In this document: piece after piece, positions 3,665-58,961 of the stretch
How positions within the stretch are numbered: position 1 is the stretch's first letter
Layout: every line of letters begins with the position of its first letter
From: an uncultured Pseudomonadales bacterium
GTDB lineage: Bacteria; Patescibacteriota; Microgenomatia; UBA1400
Direction of reading: 5' to 3'
NCBI GenBank assembly: GCA_964589815.1
Contig: CAZPUR010000003.1
Location: forward strand, 42,554 to 106,553
DNA length: 64,000 bases
Translations under genes and position numbers: made by a program
Notes under the pieces: model-generated
Database searches by the model: none
Told to the model about the DNA's origin: nothing
What the model saw: the letters and a program-made list of their open reading frames with translations, nothing else

Positions 3665-5128
3665 ATGACTAAAAAATTTTATATTACTGCTGCTATTCCT
3701 TATGTTAATGCCGCGCCCCATATTGGACATACCTTAGAGTTTGTTCAGGCTGATGTGATGGCACGCTATCATGAATTATTGGGAGAAGAGGTAATTTTTT
3801 TATCTGGAGCTGATGAAAATGCTCAAAAGAATGTCCAAGCCGCTAAAGAAAACAATACTACTCCTAAAAAATGGTGTGATATTAATTCACAAAAATTTTT
3901 CAATCTTAAAGAGCTTCTTAATTTAACTAATAATTTTGTCTTTCAAAGAGCAACTGATAAGAAACATCACCACGCCTCACAAAAATTATGGCAACTTTGT
4001 AAAAAAGAAGATATCGAGCCTAGAAAATATAAAGGTCTATATTGTGTTGGTTGTGAAGAATTCAAAACAAACAAAGATTTAATTAAAGGCAGGTGTCCAG
4101 AACACCCGAATGAAAATCTTGAAAAAGTTGAAGAAGAAAACTATTTTTTTAAACTTACTCATTACCAAACTTTTTTAAAAGACTTAATCTGTAATGATAA
4201 ACTAGAGATTATTCCTGAGCAAAGAAAAAATGAGGTCTTGTCTTTTATAGAGCTTGGTTTAAAAGATTTTAGCATTTCCAGGTCAGCTAAGCGTATGGGT
4301 GGTTGGGGAATTCCTGTCCCTGGCGACCCCTCTCAAGTAATGTATGTTTGGTTTGACGCTCTCAATGTTTATCAATCTGGTGTTGGTTTTGGTTGGGATG
4401 AAAAGAAATACCAAAAATGGTGGCCAGCAGACGTTCACTGTATTGGTAAAGGGATTCTTCGCTTTCATGCTATCTATTGGCCAGCGATTTTAAAATCAGC
4501 CGGTCTAAAATTGCCAAAAAAGATTTTTGTCCATGGTTACTTAACCATTGAAGGCCAAAAAATTTCTAAAAGCCTAGGGAATGTGATTAATCCTGAAGAC
4601 GTAGTGGAAAAATATGGTACAGATGCTTTACGCTACTTTTTATTAAAAACAATTCATCCTTATCAGGATGGAGATTTTAGTTGGAAGCTTTTTAAAGAAG
4701 TTTACAATGCTGATTTGGCTAATGGGATTGGGAATTTAATACAACGAGTTGCTAAATTAGCAGAAAAAGTTGATTTAAGGAATTTTAAAAGAATAGCTTG
4801 GAAGGATTCTAGTTTAGGATTAGGGGTGCGTACTGTTATTAATCTTTTTGAGTTCCATACTGCCCTTGGTCTTATCTGGGAACAGATTACTAAATTAGAT
4901 AAATATATAGATACTACTAAACCGTGGGGAAAAGAAGGTAATGAATTGAAAAAGCTTTTACAAAAACCAATTGAGCAACTTTTGGAGATTGCTTATTTAT
5001 TAAAACCCTTTTTACCAGCCACAGCAGAGAAAATTGAAAAGATCTTTATCCCGCACCAAAAAGGTACGGGACAAGCTGCTAGCGAGATTAAAGCCCCTCA
5101 AAAACCCCTCTTTCCCCGTTTAAAATAA
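3665..5128 (+). CDS. metG: methionine--tRNA ligase
   Basis: N-terminus YITAAIPYVNAAPHIGH (HIGH motif) and KISKSLGN (KMSKS motif). Confidence 0.95.
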   Translation: MTKKFYITAAIPYVNAAPHIGHTLEFVQADVMARYHELLGEEVIFLSGADENAQKNVQAAKENNTTPKKWCDINSQKFFNLKELLNLTNNFVFQRATDKKHHHASQKLWQLCKKEDIEPRKYKGLYCVGCEEFKTNKDLIKGRCPEHPNENLEKVEEENYFFKLTHYQTFLKDLICNDKLEIIPEQRKNEVLSFIELGLKDFSISRSAKRMGGWGIPVPGDPSQVMYVWFDALNVYQSGVGFGWDEKKYQKWWPADVHCIGKGILRFHAIYWPAILKSAGLKLPKKIFVHGYLTIEGQKISKSLGNVINPEDVVEKYGTDALRYFLLKTIHPYQDGDFSWKLFKEVYNADLANGIGNLIQRVAKLAEKVDLRNFKRIAWKDSSLGLGVRTVINLFEFHTALGLIWEQITKLDKYIDTTKPWGKEGNELKKLLQKPIEQLLEIAYLLKPFLPATAEKIEKIFIPHQKGTGQAASEIKAPQKPLFPRLK

Positions 5129-13988: not shown

Positions 13989-14061
13989 GGCCTAGTGGCG
14001 AAGAAGCTAACGCAGCTGTCTGCAAAACAGCTATACGCCGGTGCAACTCCGGCCTAGGCCT
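13989..14061 (+). tRNA. tRNA-Cys (anticodon GCA), atypical D- and T-loops
   Basis: Manual cloverleaf: acceptor GGCCTAG/CTAGGCC, anticodon stem GCTGT/ACAGC with loop CTGCAAA, T stem GCCGG/CCGGC. T-loop is TGCAACT (G where U55 is expected) and the D-loop lacks GG. Confidence 0.7.
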
Positions 14062-14104
14062 CTTTTTTATAACCTAAGATAGTGGATAGGATTGTGAATA
14101 GGAC

Positions 14105-26813: not shown

Positions 26814-26833
26814 TAAATTAAACACTCAAAATT

Positions 26834-29723: not shown

Positions 29724-29730
29724 AGGAGAA

Positions 29731-29834
29731 TTGTTACATTGTTACATTGTTACATTGTTGATAGTTTTTTGTAATACAAATCGGAAGGCTACTGTTAGCA
29801 ATGAAGCAATGAAGCAATGAAGCAATGAAGCAAT
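29731..29834 (+). repeat. foldback spacer: (TTGTTACA)x3 + TTGTTGAT on the 5' arm, (GCAATGAA)x4 on the 3' arm
   Basis: Units pair in register (per 8 nt: 6 Watson-Crick, 1 G.U, 1 A.A). Helix base at 29731/29833. Confidence 0.8.
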
Positions 29835-31028: not shown

Positions 31029-31068
31029 AAGTTGACTATCAATAAACAACTTAATCAACTAAAAAACA
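31029..31068 (+). repeat. short copy (3' part) of the TTAAGTAGTTGATTA...CTATCAATAAACAACTTAATCAACTAAAAAACA family
   Basis: 31035-31068 is identical over 34 nt to 33058-33091 and ends at the rplP ATG. Confidence 0.8.
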
Positions 31069-31718: not shown

Positions 31719-31797
31719 AAATAAGTTCAAAAGTTCATTAAGTTCATAGAGTTAATAGTAAAAAATTACTCATAACTTGTTGAGCTCATAACTAATT
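31719..31797 (+). repeat. foldback spacer, GTTCATTAAGTTCAT family copy A1
   Basis: Alignable to 34454-34547 and 41368-41463. Ends ...ATAACTAATT directly at the rpsQ GTG. Confidence 0.75.
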
Positions 31798-32025: not shown

Positions 32026-32173
32026 TGTATTAAGTAGTTGATTAGGTCCGACGCGATGGTCGGACCGTTAACTGATAGTTAACTGATAGTTTCTACCCAG
32101 TCAACGCGAGTCCTGACGTTACGTCGGGGCGAGCTAGTTAACCATAAATTAACTACTTAATTGACTATAAACG
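32026..32173 (+). repeat. foldback spacer, TTAAGTAGTTGATTA family copy with nested GC hairpins
   Basis: ATTAAGTAGTT (32030-40) is complementary to AACTACTTAAT near 32147-57. Nested GGTCCGAC-N6-GTCGGACC (32045-66) and CCTGACGTTACGTCGGGG (32112-29). (TTAACTGATAG)x2. Confidence 0.7.
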
Positions 32174-32940: not shown

Positions 32941-33091
32941 GTGTTAATTAAGTAGTTGATTAACTCGTTAACGCTCGTGTTAATTAGGTAGTTAATTAAC
33001 TAGTTTAATATAGTCCTATCAATCAACATGATCCGCCAGCTGGCGGAGAATAAATTAACTATCAATAAACAACTTAATCAACTAAAAAACA
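32941..33091 (+). repeat. foldback spacer, TTAAGTAGTTGATTA family, full copy
   Basis: 33015-33089 is identical over 75 nt to 41177-41251. TAGTTGATTA (32952-61) pairs with TAATCAACTA (33075-84). Carries palindrome TCCGCCAGCTGGCGGA (33032-47). Confidence 0.85.
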
Positions 33092-33646
33092 ATGAGTCGT
33101 TTACAACAAAAATACCAAAAAGAAATTGTTCCGGAGTTAAAAAAGGAATTTAAGATTAAAAATGATCTGGCTGTGCCTAAGGTAGCAAAAGTGGTACTTA
33201 ATGTGGGGATTGGCGAAATCGCTCATGATAAACAGGCTTTGGAAAAAGCCAAAAATACTTTAGCGGCCATTACCGGTCAGAAACCTTTAATTCGTCCGGC
33301 CAAAAAAGCAATTGCTGATTTTAAGATTAGAAAAGGCAATTCAGTCGGTCTTAAAGTAACTTTAAGAAGGAAAAGAATGTATGATTTTTTAGATAAACTA
33401 TTCTCTTTGGTTTTACCCTTGGTGCGTGATTTTCAGGGAGCTAAGCAGAATGCCTTTGATCAAGATGCCAATTATACCTTAGGCTTAAAAGAGCAGGTTA
33501 TTTTTCCTGAGGTGGACTATGATAAAATTGACAAGGTTCGAGGGATGGAGATTAGTATTGTTATCTCGACTAAAGACAAGAAAAAAGCAGCTAGATTGTT
33601 AGAATTAATGGGAATGCCGTTTACTAAGGAGGAATTAGGAAATTAG
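33092..33646 (+). CDS. rplE: 50S ribosomal protein L5 (uL5)
   Basis: SRLQQKYQKEIVPELKKEF start and the NVGIGE region. Confidence 0.95.
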   Translation: MSRLQQKYQKEIVPELKKEFKIKNDLAVPKVAKVVLNVGIGEIAHDKQALEKAKNTLAAITGQKPLIRPAKKAIADFKIRKGNSVGLKVTLRRKRMYDFLDKLFSLVLPLVRDFQGAKQNAFDQDANYTLGLKEQVIFPEVDYDKIDKVRGMEISIVISTKDKKKAARLLELMGMPFTKEELGN

Positions 33647-33653
33647 GATAAAA

Positions 33654-33705
33654 GTGATTAGTCAAAAAAAGACTAATCACTAATCACTAATCACTAATCA
33701 CTAAA
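33654..33705 (+). repeat. 10-bp perfect hairpin (GTGATTAGTC-A7-GACTAATCAC) followed by (TAATCAC)x4
   Basis: The heptamer array 33674-33701 places TAA in all three frames just before the S14 start position. Confidence 0.8.
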
Positions 33706-33891
33706 ATCGCTAAAGTTTCTAAATTTGCTAAACAGCAAAAAAAACCAAAATTTTCTAGCCGGAAGCACAACCGCTGTAAAATTTGCGGTCGACCCAGGGC
33801 CTATATTAGGCTTTTTGGCCTTTGCCGTTTATGTTTTCGTCAAATGGCCCATAAAGGAGAATTACCAGGGGTAACTAAAGCCAGCTGGTAA
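33706..33891 (+). CDS. rpsZ: 30S ribosomal protein S14 type Z (uS14), apparent ATC start
   Basis: Absent from the ORF track. Own translation: (I)[60 protein letters not shown]. 61 codons, CxxC..CxxC, collinear with Zn-type S14. No ATG/GTG/TTG in frame after the stop at 33688-90. Confidence 0.85.
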
Positions 33892-34054: not shown

Positions 34055-34453
34055 ATGCTGACAGATCCTATTGCTGATATGTTAATCAGAATCAAAAATG
34101 CCTGCTTGGCTAAGAAAAACCAGGCAGTACTGCCTTATTCTAAAATCAAAGAAAAAATCGCTAAAATTTTTCTTAGTCAAGGCTATCTTAATCAGGTTAA
34201 AAAAGAAAGCTTAAAGAATAAACAAGGAGAGGTTTTGATTTGTGACTTAAAGTATGAAAAAAACAGTTCAGTTATAAGAAACATACAAAGGGTTTCCAAA
34301 CCAGGGATGAGGGTTTATTTATCTTGGAAAAAATTACCCAGGCCTAGTTTTGGTATGGGGATAAGTATTATTTCTACCTCTAAAGGGTTAATGACCAATG
34401 CTGAGGCAATTAAGAAGAGACTAGGAGGAGAAGTAGTCTGTAAAATTTGGTAA
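34055..34453 (+). CDS. rpsH: 30S ribosomal protein S8 (uS8)
   Basis: MLTDPIADMLIRIKNA start. Confidence 0.96.
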   Translation: MLTDPIADMLIRIKNACLAKKNQAVLPYSKIKEKIAKIFLSQGYLNQVKKESLKNKQGEVLICDLKYEKNSSVIRNIQRVSKPGMRVYLSWKKLPRPSFGMGISIISTSKGLMTNAEAIKKRLGGEVVCKIW

Positions 34454-34547
34454 ATAAAGAGAAATAAGAAAAGAGTTCATTAAGTTCATGGAGTTAATAG
34501 TAAAAAAAATTACTCATAACTCATAACTTGTTGAACTAATAACTAAT
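34454..34547 (+). repeat. foldback spacer, GTTCATTAAGTTCAT family copy A2
   Basis: GAGTTAAT/ATTACTC top stem and GTTCAT units opposite ATAAC units. Ends ...ATAACTAATT at the rplF TTG. Confidence 0.75.
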
Positions 34548-41119: not shown

Positions 41120-41253
41120 ATATAGTTATTAAGTGGTTGATTAGCTCGCAACGCTCGCGTTAATTAGGTAGTTAATCCTATCAATCAACATGATCCGCCA
41201 GCTGGCGGAGAATAAATTAACTATCAATAAACAACTTAATCAACTAAAAAATC
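41120..41253 (+). repeat. foldback spacer, TTAAGTAGTTGATTA family, second full copy
   Basis: 41177-41251 is identical to 33015-33089. Lacks ~18 nt present in the other copy. Ends at the rpmJ ATG. Confidence 0.85.
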
Positions 41254-41367: not shown

Positions 41368-41463
41368 AAAAGAGAAATAAGAAATAAGTTCATTAAGTTA
41401 TTAAGTTAATAGTAAAAGAAAAAAATTACTAATAACCAATAACCTGTTGAACCAATAACTAAT
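41368..41463 (+). repeat. foldback spacer, GTTCATTAAGTTCAT family copy A3
   Basis: GTTATTA pairs perfectly with TAATAAC where copy A2 has GTTCAT/ATAAC with a bulged C. Ends ...ATAACTAATT at the rpsM TTG. Confidence 0.75.
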
Positions 41464-45719: not shown

Positions 45720-46001
45720 ATGGCATTTGTTTATTTATCAAAAAGCTTAAAAGATAATAAGAAATATATTGGTTCAACAAATAATTTACAAAGACGTATA
45801 AAAGAACATCAAAATGGTTTAGTAAGGTCAACAAAATATAGACGGCCGTTAATTTTACTAGGTTATCAGATTTGCAACGATGTTAAAGAAGCAGCTTTTT
45901 TGGAAAGAAAATATAAAAGAAGCCATAATGTTCTTGGGAGAGCAATACAAAGAGGGAGTTTTAGATTAGTTCATTCGGGGCGTGGTGCAGTGGTAGCATA
46001 G
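45720..46001 (+). CDS. small GIY-YIG nuclease-family protein; 3' end of the ORF runs into tRNA-Pro
   Basis: MAFVYLSKSLKDNKKYIGSTNNLQRRIKEHQNG... GIY-YIG-like core. The last ~9 codons overlap the tRNA, so the true stop and length are uncertain. Confidence 0.7.
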   Translation: MAFVYLSKSLKDNKKYIGSTNNLQRRIKEHQNGLVRSTKYRRPLILLGYQICNDVKEAAFLERKYKRSHNVLGRAIQRGSFRLVHSGRGAVVA

Positions 46002-46046
46002 GCGCATGGGGTGCGTCTGGCCCCGGTTCAATCCCGGGCGCCCCGA
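45976..46046 (+). tRNA. tRNA-Pro (anticodon GGG)
   Basis: Manual cloverleaf: acceptor CGGGGCG/CGCCCCG, D-loop AGTGGTA, anticodon stem GGCGC/GCGTC with loop ATGGGGT, T arm CCCGG-TTCAATC-CCGGG, discriminator A. Confidence 0.85.
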
Positions 46047-46052
46047 CAAAGA

Positions 46053-55035: not shown

Positions 55036-55066
55036 CAGCCAAAGGCTGATCGTCCTTTGGACGAAA
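55036..55066 (+). repeat. double-hairpin element CAGCCAAAGGCTGATCGTCCTTTGGACGAAAT upstream of recA
   Basis: Differs from 44201-44230 at one position in the first loop. Confidence 0.8.
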
Positions 55067-55092
55067 TTCTCCTGCCCAAGGAAAGGACTTTT

Positions 55093-56130
55093 ATGAAAGT
55101 AGATTCCCAAAAAGCCCAAGCCATTAAAATTGCTATGGATCAAATTGAAAAACAATATGGTAAGGGTGCAATTATGAGGCTTGGCGAAAGCGGTCAGAGT
55201 TTAAAAGTTGATGTTATTCCCACTGGTTCCATTGCTTTGGATTTAGCTTTGGGAGTCGGTGGTCTGCCGCGCGGTCGGATTAGCGAAATTTATGGTCCTG
55301 AAGCTTCAGGCAAAACCACCATTGGTCTTCATGTCATTGCCGAAGCGCAGAAACACGGCGGCACCGCCGCTTTTATTGACGCTGAACACGCTCTCGATCC
55401 GATGAGGGCGGAATCAATTGGAGTTAATTTAGATGATTTGATTATTTCCCAGCCGGATACCGGAGAACAGGCTTTAGAGATTTGTGAGACCTTAATTCGT
55501 TCCGGAGCCATTGATGTTATTTGTGTTGATTCTGTAGCCGCTTTGGTGCCCAAGGCCGAGATCGAAGGCGAAATGGGCGACGCCATGATTGGGGTTCAGG
55601 CTCGGTTAATGAGTCAGGCGATGAGGAAGCTAGCCGGCGCCATTGCTAAATCTAAGACCGTAATGATTTTTACCAATCAGATTAGAATGAAGATCGGCGT
55701 TATGTTCGGTAATCCGGAGACAACTGCTGGCGGTCAGGCTTTAAAGTTTTATTCTTCGGTTAGATTGGATACGCGCCGGATTGGTAAAATCCAAGACGGA
55801 GAAAAAGTAATTGGTTCCCGCCACCGGGTGAAAGTAGTTAAAAATAAAATCGCTCCACCTTTTCGGGTGGCGGAGTTTGACATTATGAACGTCGGCGGCA
55901 TTTCCCGGACTGGTGGACTTTTGGACGTAGGCGTTGAATTAGATGTGATTGAGAAATCCGGTTCGTTTTTCAAATATAAGGGTGAAGTTTTAGGCCAAGG
56001 CAGAGAAGGCGTAAAAATTACCTTAGAGGAAAAAGAAAAACTGGGTAAGGAAATTGAAGCCGCCATTTGGAAAAGTGTTAAAGCCAGCAAACATCCACCT
56101 AAAGAAATGGGTGAACAAAAAGAAGAATAA
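55093..56130 (+). CDS. recA: recombinase RecA
   Basis: [14 protein letters not shown] and [12 protein letters not shown] (Walker A). ATG at 55093 with an AAGGAAAGGA SD. The caller's TTG at 55057 lies in the repeat. Confidence 0.97.
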
Positions 56131-56773
56131 GTTGCCAATTATTACTAAGCTTAAAAGTCAGAAGAATAGAAACAGGGTTAATTTATACTTAGATCATAAA
56201 TTTGCTTTTGGTCTAAGTTTAAATCAAGTAGTCAAATTAGGCCTAAAAACTGGTCAAGAATTGAACCAGGGTGAGGTAGAAAAACTTCTTTTCTCCAGTC
56301 AAGCAGAAAAGCTTTACCAGAAAACTTTAAATTTTCTTTCTTACCGCCCTCGGAGTGAAAAAGAAATAAAAGATTATTTAAGAAAAAATCTTAATAAATC
56401 GCCTCAATTATTAAGAAAAATCCAAACCAAAATCATTAAAAAACTTAAAAAACTTAACTTAGTTAATGATAAAGAATTTGCCCTCTGGTGGATAGAACAA
56501 AGGCTGAGTTTCAAACCTCGAGGCAAAAGAGGGTTAAAAGCGGAACTTTTCCAAAAAGGTGTAGACAGAGACATTATTGATTCTCAGATCAGCCAAATCA
56601 GCCAAATCAGCCAAATAAATTCTGCCAAAAAAATTATTACTAAAAAGAAGAAATTCTATCAAAATTTAGCTCCTCAAAAAATGAAACAGCGTCTTTTTGC
56701 CTTACTGGCTCGTCGGGGTTTTGACTTCGATACGATTAAAAGAGCGATTGACGAAGAAACAAAAAAAGAATAA
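56111..56773 (+). CDS. recX: recombination regulator RecX
   Basis: [20 protein letters not shown] and [12 protein letters not shown] repeat architecture. Start uncertain (GTG 56111 versus TTG 56054). Confidence 0.8.
56588..56614 (+). repeat. 3 x 9-nt perfect tandem repeat ATCAGCCAA inside recX (QISQISQIS)
   Basis: Read directly. Confidence 0.9.
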
Positions 56774-58516: not shown

Positions 58517-58619
58517 CAGGTTTCGCGTCTAAAAGTTTAGCGCTATTTAGTGTTAATTTTTAGTGTTATTTCGTGTTTAGAAATTTAGCGTATTTCGTGT
58601 CTAGGAGGTGAGATAATTA

Positions 58620-58895
58620 GTGAAAAAATCCAACTTAGTCGAAGTAGTAGCTAAAAAAGCCCATCTGACCAAAAATGCGGCCAAAGAAGCGATGGATGTT
58701 TTTTTAGATGAACTTAAGAGACTCTTACAAAAAGGAGAAAAAATAACTTTGTCCGGCTTTGGCACTTTCAAGGTTAAAAAAGTTGCCAATAAAACAGGTA
58801 GGAAAAGCCCTAAAGACCCGACGCCAATGGTGCACAAGTCTCATCGAGTAGTTCGTTTTATTGTCAGCAAAACCCTCCGCAAGTCCGTTAAATAA
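58620..58895 (+). CDS. hup: HU/IHF-family DNA-binding protein, GTG start
   Basis: KSNLVEVVAKKAHLTKNAAKEAMDVFLDELK...LSGFGTFKVKK. SD AGGAGGTGA. Confidence 0.92.
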   Translation: MKKSNLVEVVAKKAHLTKNAAKEAMDVFLDELKRLLQKGEKITLSGFGTFKVKKVANKTGRKSPKDPTPMVHKSHRVVRFIVSKTLRKSVK

Positions 58896-58961
58896 TAAAA
58901 TATTTTTCGTGTCTTTTGCGCCAGTGTGTTCGTATCTTTCGGGCTTAGAATTGAAGAAGTT

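Follow-up and report, generated by a model that had tools for sequence, protein, structure and literature searches.

The S14 gene and its start codon

The 64-kb stretch of contig CAZPUR010000003.1 analysed here (the window, numbered from its first nucleotide) holds the str, S10, spc and alpha cluster, from EF-G and EF-Tu through S10 to L15, SecY, Adk, Cmk, Map, IF-1, L36 and S13 on to S9. Our study concerns one gene of this cluster, that for ribosomal protein S14, together with the structured spacer that lies upstream of it. The gene is placed between rplE (L5) and rpsH (S8), the canonical spc-operon site, in an order identical in all relatives, and its start position is occupied by ATC. L30 is absent from the ribosomal cluster, GC content is 37 %, and the closest taxon-named L5 proteins among the matches listed were those of Candidatus Beckwithbacteria and 'Patescibacteria group'; going by these sequences, the host, an uncultured bacterium, is a Microgenomates/Beckwithbacteria-like Patescibacterium. 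The features of the region, with open reading frames (ORFs), the Shine–Dalgarno (SD) tract and predicted pairing, are as follows.

33092–33646, + strand: rplE (L5), from the ORF list, with Pfam L5 domains on an identical protein
33626–33705, + strand: intercistronic cassette (cassette D, 80 nt), consisting of an SD tract, a 5' arm with ATTAGGA units, an inner hairpin, a 3' heptamer arm and CACTAAA
33626–33632, + strand: AAGGAGG SD tract at the 5' base of the hairpin, mean probability of being unpaired, P(unpaired), 0.42
33633–33648, + strand: (AATTAGGA)x2, outer 5' arm (Tandem Repeats Finder and minimum free energy structures)
33653–33681, + strand: inner hairpin (11-bp stem, A7 loop), -13.8 kcal/mol, P(unpaired) 0.00
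33654–33683, + strand: nine-codon mini-ORF from GTG 33654 to TAA 33683, encoding MISQKKTNH
33672–33704, + strand: heptamer array, ACTAATC x4.7 (equivalently TAATCAC x4), the 3' arm (Tandem Repeats Finder)
33688–33690, + strand: in-frame TAA closing the S14 frame upstream, read from the sequence
33697–33699, + strand: second in-frame ATC; a start here would lengthen the protein by 3 residues (MTKI-AKV...)
33706–33708, + strand: ATC in place of the Met1 codon, proposed to serve as an AUC start (alignments, other assemblies and the relative L174)
33706–33891, + strand: rpsN/rpsZ, type-Z (zinc) S14, 61 codons (Pfam, NCBIfam and selection ratios)
34055–34453, + strand: rpsH (S8), the downstream neighbour, with its own SD (GGAG) after another spacer hairpin

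The 61-codon frame matched Pfam PF00253 (E=5.6e-27) and, over its full length (positions 1–61/61), the type-Z S14 equivalog NF005974 of NCBIfam (108 bits against a cut-off of 77), in agreement with the earlier note on this DNA, which had called it a zinc-type S14 from the letters of the sequence. The zinc motif CxxC...CxxC was intact (C24, C27, C40 and C43) in the translation when aligned with 150+ homologues, and the conserved C-terminal ...PGVxKASW was kept to its KASW end. A dN/dS of 0.17 was obtained against the nearest relative (L084) and a pN/pS of 0.20 against L174, with pN/pS values of 0.17–0.20 for three pairs (window/L084, window/L174 and L174/L176). On these ratios both ATC-bearing S14 genes evolve under purifying selection, with a constraint equal to that on their ATG-bearing counterparts. 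No second S14 copy was found within the 64-kb window, and among 5.8 billion proteins (cluster representatives) no annotated S14 was more than 89 % identical, the best match, at 89 %, belonging to another species.

The ATC at 33706–08 aligned with residue 1 (M, V or L) of all S14 homologues. The frame is closed upstream by the TAA at 33688–90, and within the stop-to-stop ORF (33691–33891) the first ATG, GTG or TTG is ORF codon 51, corresponding to Met48 of S14; on each of these points the reading given in the earlier note was upheld. The residue-1 codon is one base off AUG in an open frame with no canonical start (ATG, GTG or TTG), and the same is true of L174. The lack of a canonical start is a trait of the gene model and not of the protein family. 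In the window, S14 was the only conserved ORF without such a start, and it was the only ribosomal gene affected in both species with ATC. A genome-wide relaxation of start-codon use was considered and rejected, as all other conserved ORFs of the window have canonical starts and the other ribosomal genes of L174 had all received normal gene calls. The second in-frame ATC, at 33697–99, sits within the paired 3' arm of the cassette and is without counterpart in L174, and AUC 33697 is a less likely start than AUC 33706. As the gene is intact, constrained and without a canonical start, it must start at a non-canonical codon. We consider that S14 is functional and started at AUC, and would put the probability of this reading, which was drawn from sequence comparison, at about 0.7.

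Independent assemblies and gene calls

Identical sequence, including the ATC, was recovered in five other assemblies from four samples, namely JGI 3300031551 (L001 and L168, the same contig), JGI 3300031365 (L002), JGI 3300031554 (L003) and Logan SRR9707468 (L169). As the ATC is common to all five, the sequencing or assembly error (ATG to ATC) about which the earlier note had cautioned can be ruled out. The non-canonical start that it had proposed for S14 gains support from the intact and constrained gene, from these concordant assemblies and from the ATC of L174, which stands behind an SD with no alternative start.

No S14 gene call was present in any of these assemblies, and neither an M-initiated nor an I-initiated form of the window's S14 protein was present in a collection of 15 billion proteins. 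The missing call is uninformative by itself, because public gene calls also skip S14 genes with ordinary starts, as seen for ATG with an SD in L173 (1334–1440) and L176 (1100–1290) and for TTG with an SD in L085 (3055–3130).

S14 start codons in relatives

Relatives were drawn from metagenome and genome scans, the best new matches being 82 % and 65 % identical among the matches listed. In the loci first examined, 151 S14 genes began with ATG (107), GTG (23) or TTG (21), and among approximately 160 relatives ATC was seen at the S14 start in only two, the window species and L174. The start codons of the individual relatives discussed here were as follows.

L084: ATG
L170 and L171: GTG
L172: ATG
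L173: ATG
L175: GTG
L176: ATG
L085: TTG
L086: ATG
L087: GTG

The S14 start codon is labile within the closest clade. The earlier note had regarded ATG in relatives as evidence against an ATC start; most relatives do have ATG, but this leaves the finding standing, as the ATC has been verified in the window species and recurs in L174.

L174 (JGI 3300056904) has an L5 that is 76 % identical to that of the window and shares approximately 70 % identity with it over five ribosomal proteins. Its junction reads AAAGGAGGTCAAA-ATC-GCTAAAGTTTCT, and the ATC is placed 5 nt past a strong AAAGGAGGT SD. The L5 stop codon (TAA) overlaps S14 codons 2–3, giving an 8-nt gene overlap, which is the geometry of termination–reinitiation, and a stop 15 codons upstream closes the S14 frame, with no ATG, GTG, TTG, CTG or ATN in between. 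With a strong SD, a classic gene overlap and AUC as the sole candidate start, L174 is, as far as its sequence can be read, the clean case. Furthermore, it carries ATC without any cassette, and the ATC start and the cassette are therefore separable features.

Neighbour joining on five ribosomal proteins placed the window with L170 and L084, and L174 with L173, on short internal branches. As the two ATC species group apart, ATC would either have arisen twice or be old and later reverted. A comparison of L176 (AAT-GGC) with L174 (AAT-CGC) favours a G-to-C substitution as the origin of ATC, while the sequence of L170 (AAAATC-GTG-GCT) would allow for deletion of a 3-nt start codon. A literature search returned nothing on an ATC start of S14, and one survey of ribosomes of the Candidate Phyla Radiation was silent on S14.

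The intercistronic cassette

The AAGGAGG tract is now 73 nt from the S14 start, whereas the same tract is found 5–6 nt before the S14 start in L084, L170 and L174; by this comparison it is the ancestral SD of S14. The last codons of L5 extend into the cassette and the L5 stop is the cassette's own TAG (33644–46), located in the second ATTAGGA unit, so that the outer 5' arm encodes the L5 C-terminus and stop and also pairs with the heptamer units. The perfect 10-bp hairpin described in the earlier note was found at 33654–80 (GTGATTAGTC, A7 loop, GACTAATCAC); it is extendable to 11 bp at 33653–81 and starts 7 nt past the L5 stop codon. Together the arms form a composite hairpin of approximately 65 nt (33634–33698, -21.8 kcal/mol), and the fold of the wider region had a z of -4.5, with 0/200 shuffles as stable. 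Ensemble folding predicted a stable hairpin in which AUC 33706 (P(unpaired) 0.82) and CACUAAA (0.71) were largely open and the SD less so (0.42). All pairs of the hairpin are Watson–Crick, and G.U asymmetry is thus uninformative on whether it acts as RNA or DNA. Rfam families gave no match at gathering score anywhere in the window. No intrinsic terminator was found on the + strand, and just a pattern match on the gene-less - strand.

The 3' arm contains (TAATCAC)x4 at 33674–33701 (period 7, 4.7 copies, 100 % match by Tandem Repeats Finder), and its TAA triplets at 33674, 33681, 33688, 33695 and 33702 cover all three frames. The mini-ORF holds an in-frame dnaX-like A_AAA_AAG motif.

Our study revealed that this arrangement is not confined to S14. 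A copy at L085:46–120, in the L22/S3 junction, was 92 % identical to the cassette of the window over 75 ungapped columns, with flanks unrelated to those of the window (3/10 and 7/20 matches), yet synonymous sites are saturated between the two species. In this copy the S3 start is a TTG directly after CACTAAAT and the count of heptamer units is the same as in the window, GTG is replaced by GCG, so that there is no mini-ORF, and the loop is A3 (AAA) rather than A7. A covariance model built from the two copies found a diverged third copy at the S14/S8 junction of L173 (1628–1703, E=7e-8; 83 bits with a three-sequence model), with the S8 TTG immediately after it. Its units have changed from ATTAG/CTAAT to (G)ATAG/CTATT in both arms, giving a 3' arm of (CACTATT)x4. 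Over the three copies 94.8 % of cells were paired, compared to 17–54 % with slid partners, and in each of the three helices one pair differed in both partners, twice as a full swap and once as U-A replaced by G-U.

The three copies are alike in that the sole SD-like purine-rich tract lies at the 5' base, no SD adjoins the start, and the start codon (TTG, ATC and TTG) stands 3–4 nt past the last predicted pair. In all three the upstream gene terminates at the cassette or shortly ahead of it, and the window and L085 copies share the same TAG. The hairpin and heptamer array are thus, by the similarity of the copies, an 80-nt intercistronic cassette that is not specific to S14. The earlier note had drawn attention to a nine-codon mini-ORF from GTG 33654 and to the TAA in every frame: both are present in the window, but the GTG is not conserved in the L085 copy and the TAA in every frame is lost in that of L173. 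As a selected feature, TAA in all three frames was rejected, since it is automatic with any TAA-bearing 7-nt unit and is lost in L173. Judged across the copies, these features of the window (GTG mini-ORF, A7 loop and TAA triplets covering all frames) are probably incidental; the A_AAA_AAG motif and the UAAUC stop–start chain of the array are likewise not kept in L085 or L173 and are missing from L174. A literature search found nothing on repeat cassettes in Patescibacteria.

A possible mechanism of initiation

Near-cognate initiation is a known phenomenon and what is new here is its instance in an unexpected gene. The genes infC and pcnB start with AUU in bacteria, and in Escherichia coli AUU, AUA and AUC give approximately 1–2 % of AUG. 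Such AUN starts and that of S14 are alike in differing from AUG at the third base, in their reading by the initiator tRNA and in being missed by callers limited to ATG, GTG and TTG. In infC, however, AUU is conserved across wide taxa and belongs to an autoregulatory loop of IF3, whereas S14 is a structural ribosomal protein with ATC in two lineages and no regulatory logic evident; orthologue-wide conservation of a near-cognate start, as in infC, was not found for S14.

In Escherichia coli AUC initiates at approximately 1–2 % of AUG, with an N-terminal Met (bioRxiv 10.1101/063800), and for this reason compensation would be needed for S14. A mechanism that might provide it can be sketched from the layout of the junction. 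In the compact relatives the genes for L5 and S14 overlap, with AAGGAGG inside the L5 3' end, 5–6 nt before the S14 start, and this layout is taken as ancestral; that of the window combines an ATC start with an 80-nt structured cassette between SD and start. Folded as a closed insertion, the hairpin would reduce the effective spacing from SD to AUC to 1+7 = 8 nt (a 'split' ribosome-binding site), and the initiator tRNA would then read the near-cognate AUC at 33706. Because the L5 stop lies in the 5' arm, along with the SD, ribosomes finishing L5 would have to open the outer helices, if only transiently, and this melting may leave the heptamer leader single-stranded and so couple S14 synthesis to that of L5. 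The strong SD and the coupling would jointly offset the weak codon, which we regard as the most economical proposal. The SD is more than 15 nt off, the hairpin lies exactly between SD and start and the effective distance is 8 nt, the L085 and L173 copies have the same geometry, and the modelled geometry of the S14 cassette fits a hairpin-bridged split ribosome-binding site. Bridging of the SD combined with coupling is nevertheless put forward tentatively, as a proposal with somewhat less than an even chance of being correct.

The comparison with known systems is instructive in both directions. In T4 genes 38 and 25 a hairpin cuts the distance from SD to start from 22 to 5 nt and from 27 to 11 nt (PMC3014915), and S14 would resemble them in having a distant SD and start bridged by a hairpin, with a predicted change from approximately 73 to 8 nt. 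The T4 sites were shown experimentally; the predicted hairpin of the cassette is much larger, at approximately 65 nt, built of tandem repeats, found as a family at several junctions and in several species, and followed by weak starts (TTG, ATC and TTG). In the E. coli rpmI–rplT operon, coupling occurs by RNA unfolding at a spacing of +52 nt (PMC12548453). This system and MS2 coat–lysis/replicase share with S14 the pairing of the 3' end of the upstream cistron with the downstream leader, and rpmI–rplT is, like S14 with its stop-to-start distance of approximately 59 nt, part of a ribosomal-protein operon. In contrast to systems coupled by unfolding, the S14 start is predicted to be open even when the leader is folded, and unfolding would free the leader rather than unmask the start. 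REP/BIME, ERIC and Correia elements and 'ribosome termination structures' (PMC7518266) are likewise short repeated hairpins in operon spacers, and the stem of the cassette begins approximately 7 nt past the stop. Unlike all these elements, the cassette has an SD at one end and a start at the other and supplies the upstream stop codon. No transposase was seen, the copy number per genome appears low, and the cassette is 92 % identical across species with saturated synonymous sites. We would class it, tentatively, as a new variation on split ribosome-binding sites or on intercistronic repeat elements.

Several points weigh against this interpretation. If AUC in S14 were as weak as in E. coli, approximately 50–100x weaker than AUG, stoichiometric synthesis would need very effective compensation, and the two are hard to reconcile. 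A recognizable SD is present in only approximately one-third of the genes of the window, so that initiation in this organism often proceeds without one, two bases of the SD are predicted to be paired at the hairpin base, and AAGGAGG may be a relic kept just for encoding L5 residues. A stable hairpin just past a stop codon reportedly inhibits reinitiation, as described for 'ribosome termination structures' (PMC7518266). The covariation comes from three sequences only, with the observed values reached by 22/500 shuffles; an all-Watson–Crick hairpin leaves roles at the RNA and DNA levels undistinguished; and the check for a second S14 was confined to the 64-kb window.

A wider version of the proposal would see in the cassette a portable structured ribosome-binding site, composed of SD, repeat hairpin and fixed spacer, which has spread across ribosomal-gene junctions in a Microgenomates clade, ends the upstream gene within its 5' arm and hands ribosomes over the hairpin, by SD bridging or in a shunt-like manner, onto weak or non-canonical starts (TTG, TTG and AUC), with an efficiency sufficient for the synthesis of an essential ribosomal protein. 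We regard this as doubtful.

Alternative explanations

The cassette might have nothing to do with the choice of start, being a general element for mRNA processing or stability, or an insulator, while AUC is used independently of an SD on an open A-rich leader. Approximately two-thirds of starts in the window are without an SD, nearly all spacers of the operon are occupied by hairpins made of repeats, which belong to several families and in some cases are followed by an SD, the window encodes RNase Y, the post-stop hairpin matches 'ribosome termination structure' insulators (PMC7518266), and L174 separates ATC from the cassette. A stability element would, however, have no need of the SD-like tract at the 5' base, the absence of a start-adjacent SD and the fixed distance from hairpin to start that recur in all three copies, and for a ribosomal protein needed in stoichiometric amounts AUC without an SD would be an extremely weak start; we therefore consider this explanation unlikely. 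A role for the mini-ORF and array, as implied by the reinitiation-dependent start suggested in the earlier note, would take the form of a relay, in which ribosomes leaving L5 restart at GTG 33654, translate the nine codons, end at a TAA that shares bases with an ATC (UAAUC) and pass via the array to ATC 33697 (through TAA 33695–97) or ATC 33706 (through TAA 33702–04). The sequence geometry required is present: AGGA stands 5 nt before the GTG and the GTG 7 nt past the L5 stop, every TAA in the array either shares bases with an ATC or lies directly beside one, the two registers both lead into the S14 frame, and an in-frame A_AAA_AAG slippery motif lies inside the mini-ORF. Moreover, reinitiation by scanning ribosomes is documented (PMC12548453). 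Yet the chain geometry is automatic from a 7-nt period, L085 has GCG for GTG and AAA for the A7 loop, the (CACTATT)x4 arm of L173 is without a TAA/ATC chain, and L174 uses ATC without any cassette, so that this suggestion was downgraded. Two to three successive AUC restarts would also multiply their inefficiencies; efficient termination–reinitiation reportedly needs very short distances and is inhibited by post-stop hairpins, and in the window the L5 stop (33644–46) lies 59 nt before the ATC, without the proximity of stop and start that it would require. A relay is thus improbable.

It is similarly improbable that this S14 is a silent or decaying copy that has lost its start, with a second S14 elsewhere doing the work. 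Such a copy would have no canonical start and no SD adjoining the start, as observed, the view is limited to 64 kb of the genome, and many bacteria hold paired zinc and non-zinc S14 paralogues. Decay is at odds with the full-length ORF, its four Cys and KASW end, a pN/pS of approximately 0.2 equal to that of ATG-bearing relatives, the canonical spc-operon position and the presence of ATC in another species as well, approximately 70 % identical over five ribosomal proteins. It is also at odds with the absence of a second copy from the window and of an annotated S14 above 89 % identity from the 5.8-billion-protein collection. In addition, genomes of Patescibacteria are small and duplicates of ribosomal proteins rare in them. 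Recoding, by frameshift or hopping from L5 or the mini-ORF, or an assembly error at the ATC, we consider scarcely credible. A hairpin after a stop, an A-run and repeats do call to mind T4 gene 60 and dnaX, but the likeness is superficial only. TAA closes all three frames between L5 and S14, a take-off AAT has no landing AAT from which the S14 frame could be entered (CAC TAA comes after each of them), and +1/-1 shifts at the A-run end at TAA 33688 or TAA 33674; frameshifting and hopping into S14 were accordingly rejected, the frames being closed and no matching landing codon available. Against an assembly error stands the agreement of the five assemblies.

Other spacer elements

Between positions 26814 and 41463 of the window nearly every intergenic spacer has a hairpin of short tandem repeats (period 7–12 nt), whereas the same junctions are compact, overlapping or abutting, in L084, L086, L170, L174 and L176. 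The pattern suggests that structured elements have invaded the spacers of ribosomal operons in this lineage specifically. Besides the cassette, at least three further families of elements occur repeatedly in the window, and two of them also in L172. In family A, two hairpins are succeeded by an A/C-rich leader that has no SD and is highly conserved (AACTATCAATAAACAACTTAATCAACTAAAAAACA-ATG); this element precedes L5, L36 and L14, its 3' part precedes L16, and it is conserved before L14 in L172. Family B (AAGTTCATTAAGTT…AATAGT, an A-rich loop and ATTACTMATAAC…AACTAAT) stands directly before the GTG/TTG starts of S17, L6 and S13. The L172 copy fills the L5–S14 spacer before an ATG-started S14, and the S14 cassette of the window aligns loosely with it. 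The sites are listed below.

Family A: window 32941–33091, 41120–41253, 32026–32173 and 31029–31068; L172:60–218
Family B: window 31719–31797, 34470–34547 and 41375–41463; L172:1430–1500

In L002 (JGI 3300031365, a 1199-nt contig; positions 211–1118) infA is joined directly to L5 via a family A element, while L36 comes after infA in the window; the contig is a chimera assembled across the repeat, or else it derives from a genuine recombinant. The S19–L22 spacer (29724–29834) has AGGAG right after the S19 stop, then (ATTGTTAC)x3.8 pairing with (AGCAATGA)x4.8 through a duplex that includes 9 G.U pairs. Its predicted fold is much stronger on the + strand (-36.7 kcal/mol) than on the - strand (-15.4 kcal/mol), and for this reason the hairpin is probably an RNA structure. 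Just ahead of the L22 TTG, the 8-nt array also gives rise to ATGAAGCAATGA mini-ORFs that overlap one another and occupy every frame.

Outside this lineage, L054 (Promineifilum sp., Chloroflexota) has heptamer hairpins in the S17–L14, L14–L24 and L6–L18 spacers (1669–1749, 2122–2210 and 4363–4447), with the heptamers GTGATCA/CTGATCA, CTAGGGA and CACTAGT and a normal SD after the hairpin. In the metagenome loci L092–L109, S14 is preceded by (AGCTARA)n arrays that terminate in an SD. Hairpins built of repeats may be widespread between ribosomal genes.

Elsewhere in the window, ARAGORN found tRNA-Cys(GCA) and tRNA-Pro(GGG) at 13989–14062 and 45976–46047, for which the whole-window Rfam scan listed no match. 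A 24-nt unit (TTTCGTGTCTAGAAATTTAGCGCTA) is repeated x3.5 at 58521–58604, just upstream of a gene at 58620, and a related motif (TTTCGTGTCT) lies upstream of the next gene at 58926. A 248-codon ORF (56027–56773), RecX-like by eye only, overlaps the 3' end of the preceding gene (55057–56130) by approximately 100 nt and contains an in-frame (ATCAGCCAA)x3.2 at 56588–56616.

Implications

Gene callers limited to ATG, GTG and TTG miss genes with AUN starts, and public annotation has no S14 here. Surveys of genome completeness or of 'missing ribosomal proteins' in Patescibacteria would wrongly score S14 as absent in this organism, and likewise in L174. An essential, stoichiometric protein made from AUC in two lineages would mean either that coupling or SD strength can offset a codon approximately 50-fold weaker, or that start discrimination is relaxed. 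Cassettes with an SD at one end and the next start at the other, invading compact ribosomal operons, are possibly an undescribed class of element and may be a natural example of structured, modular translation-initiation regions. If the portable cassette proves true, it would be a bacterial counterpart of the hairpin shunting onto non-AUG starts known in plant pararetroviruses.

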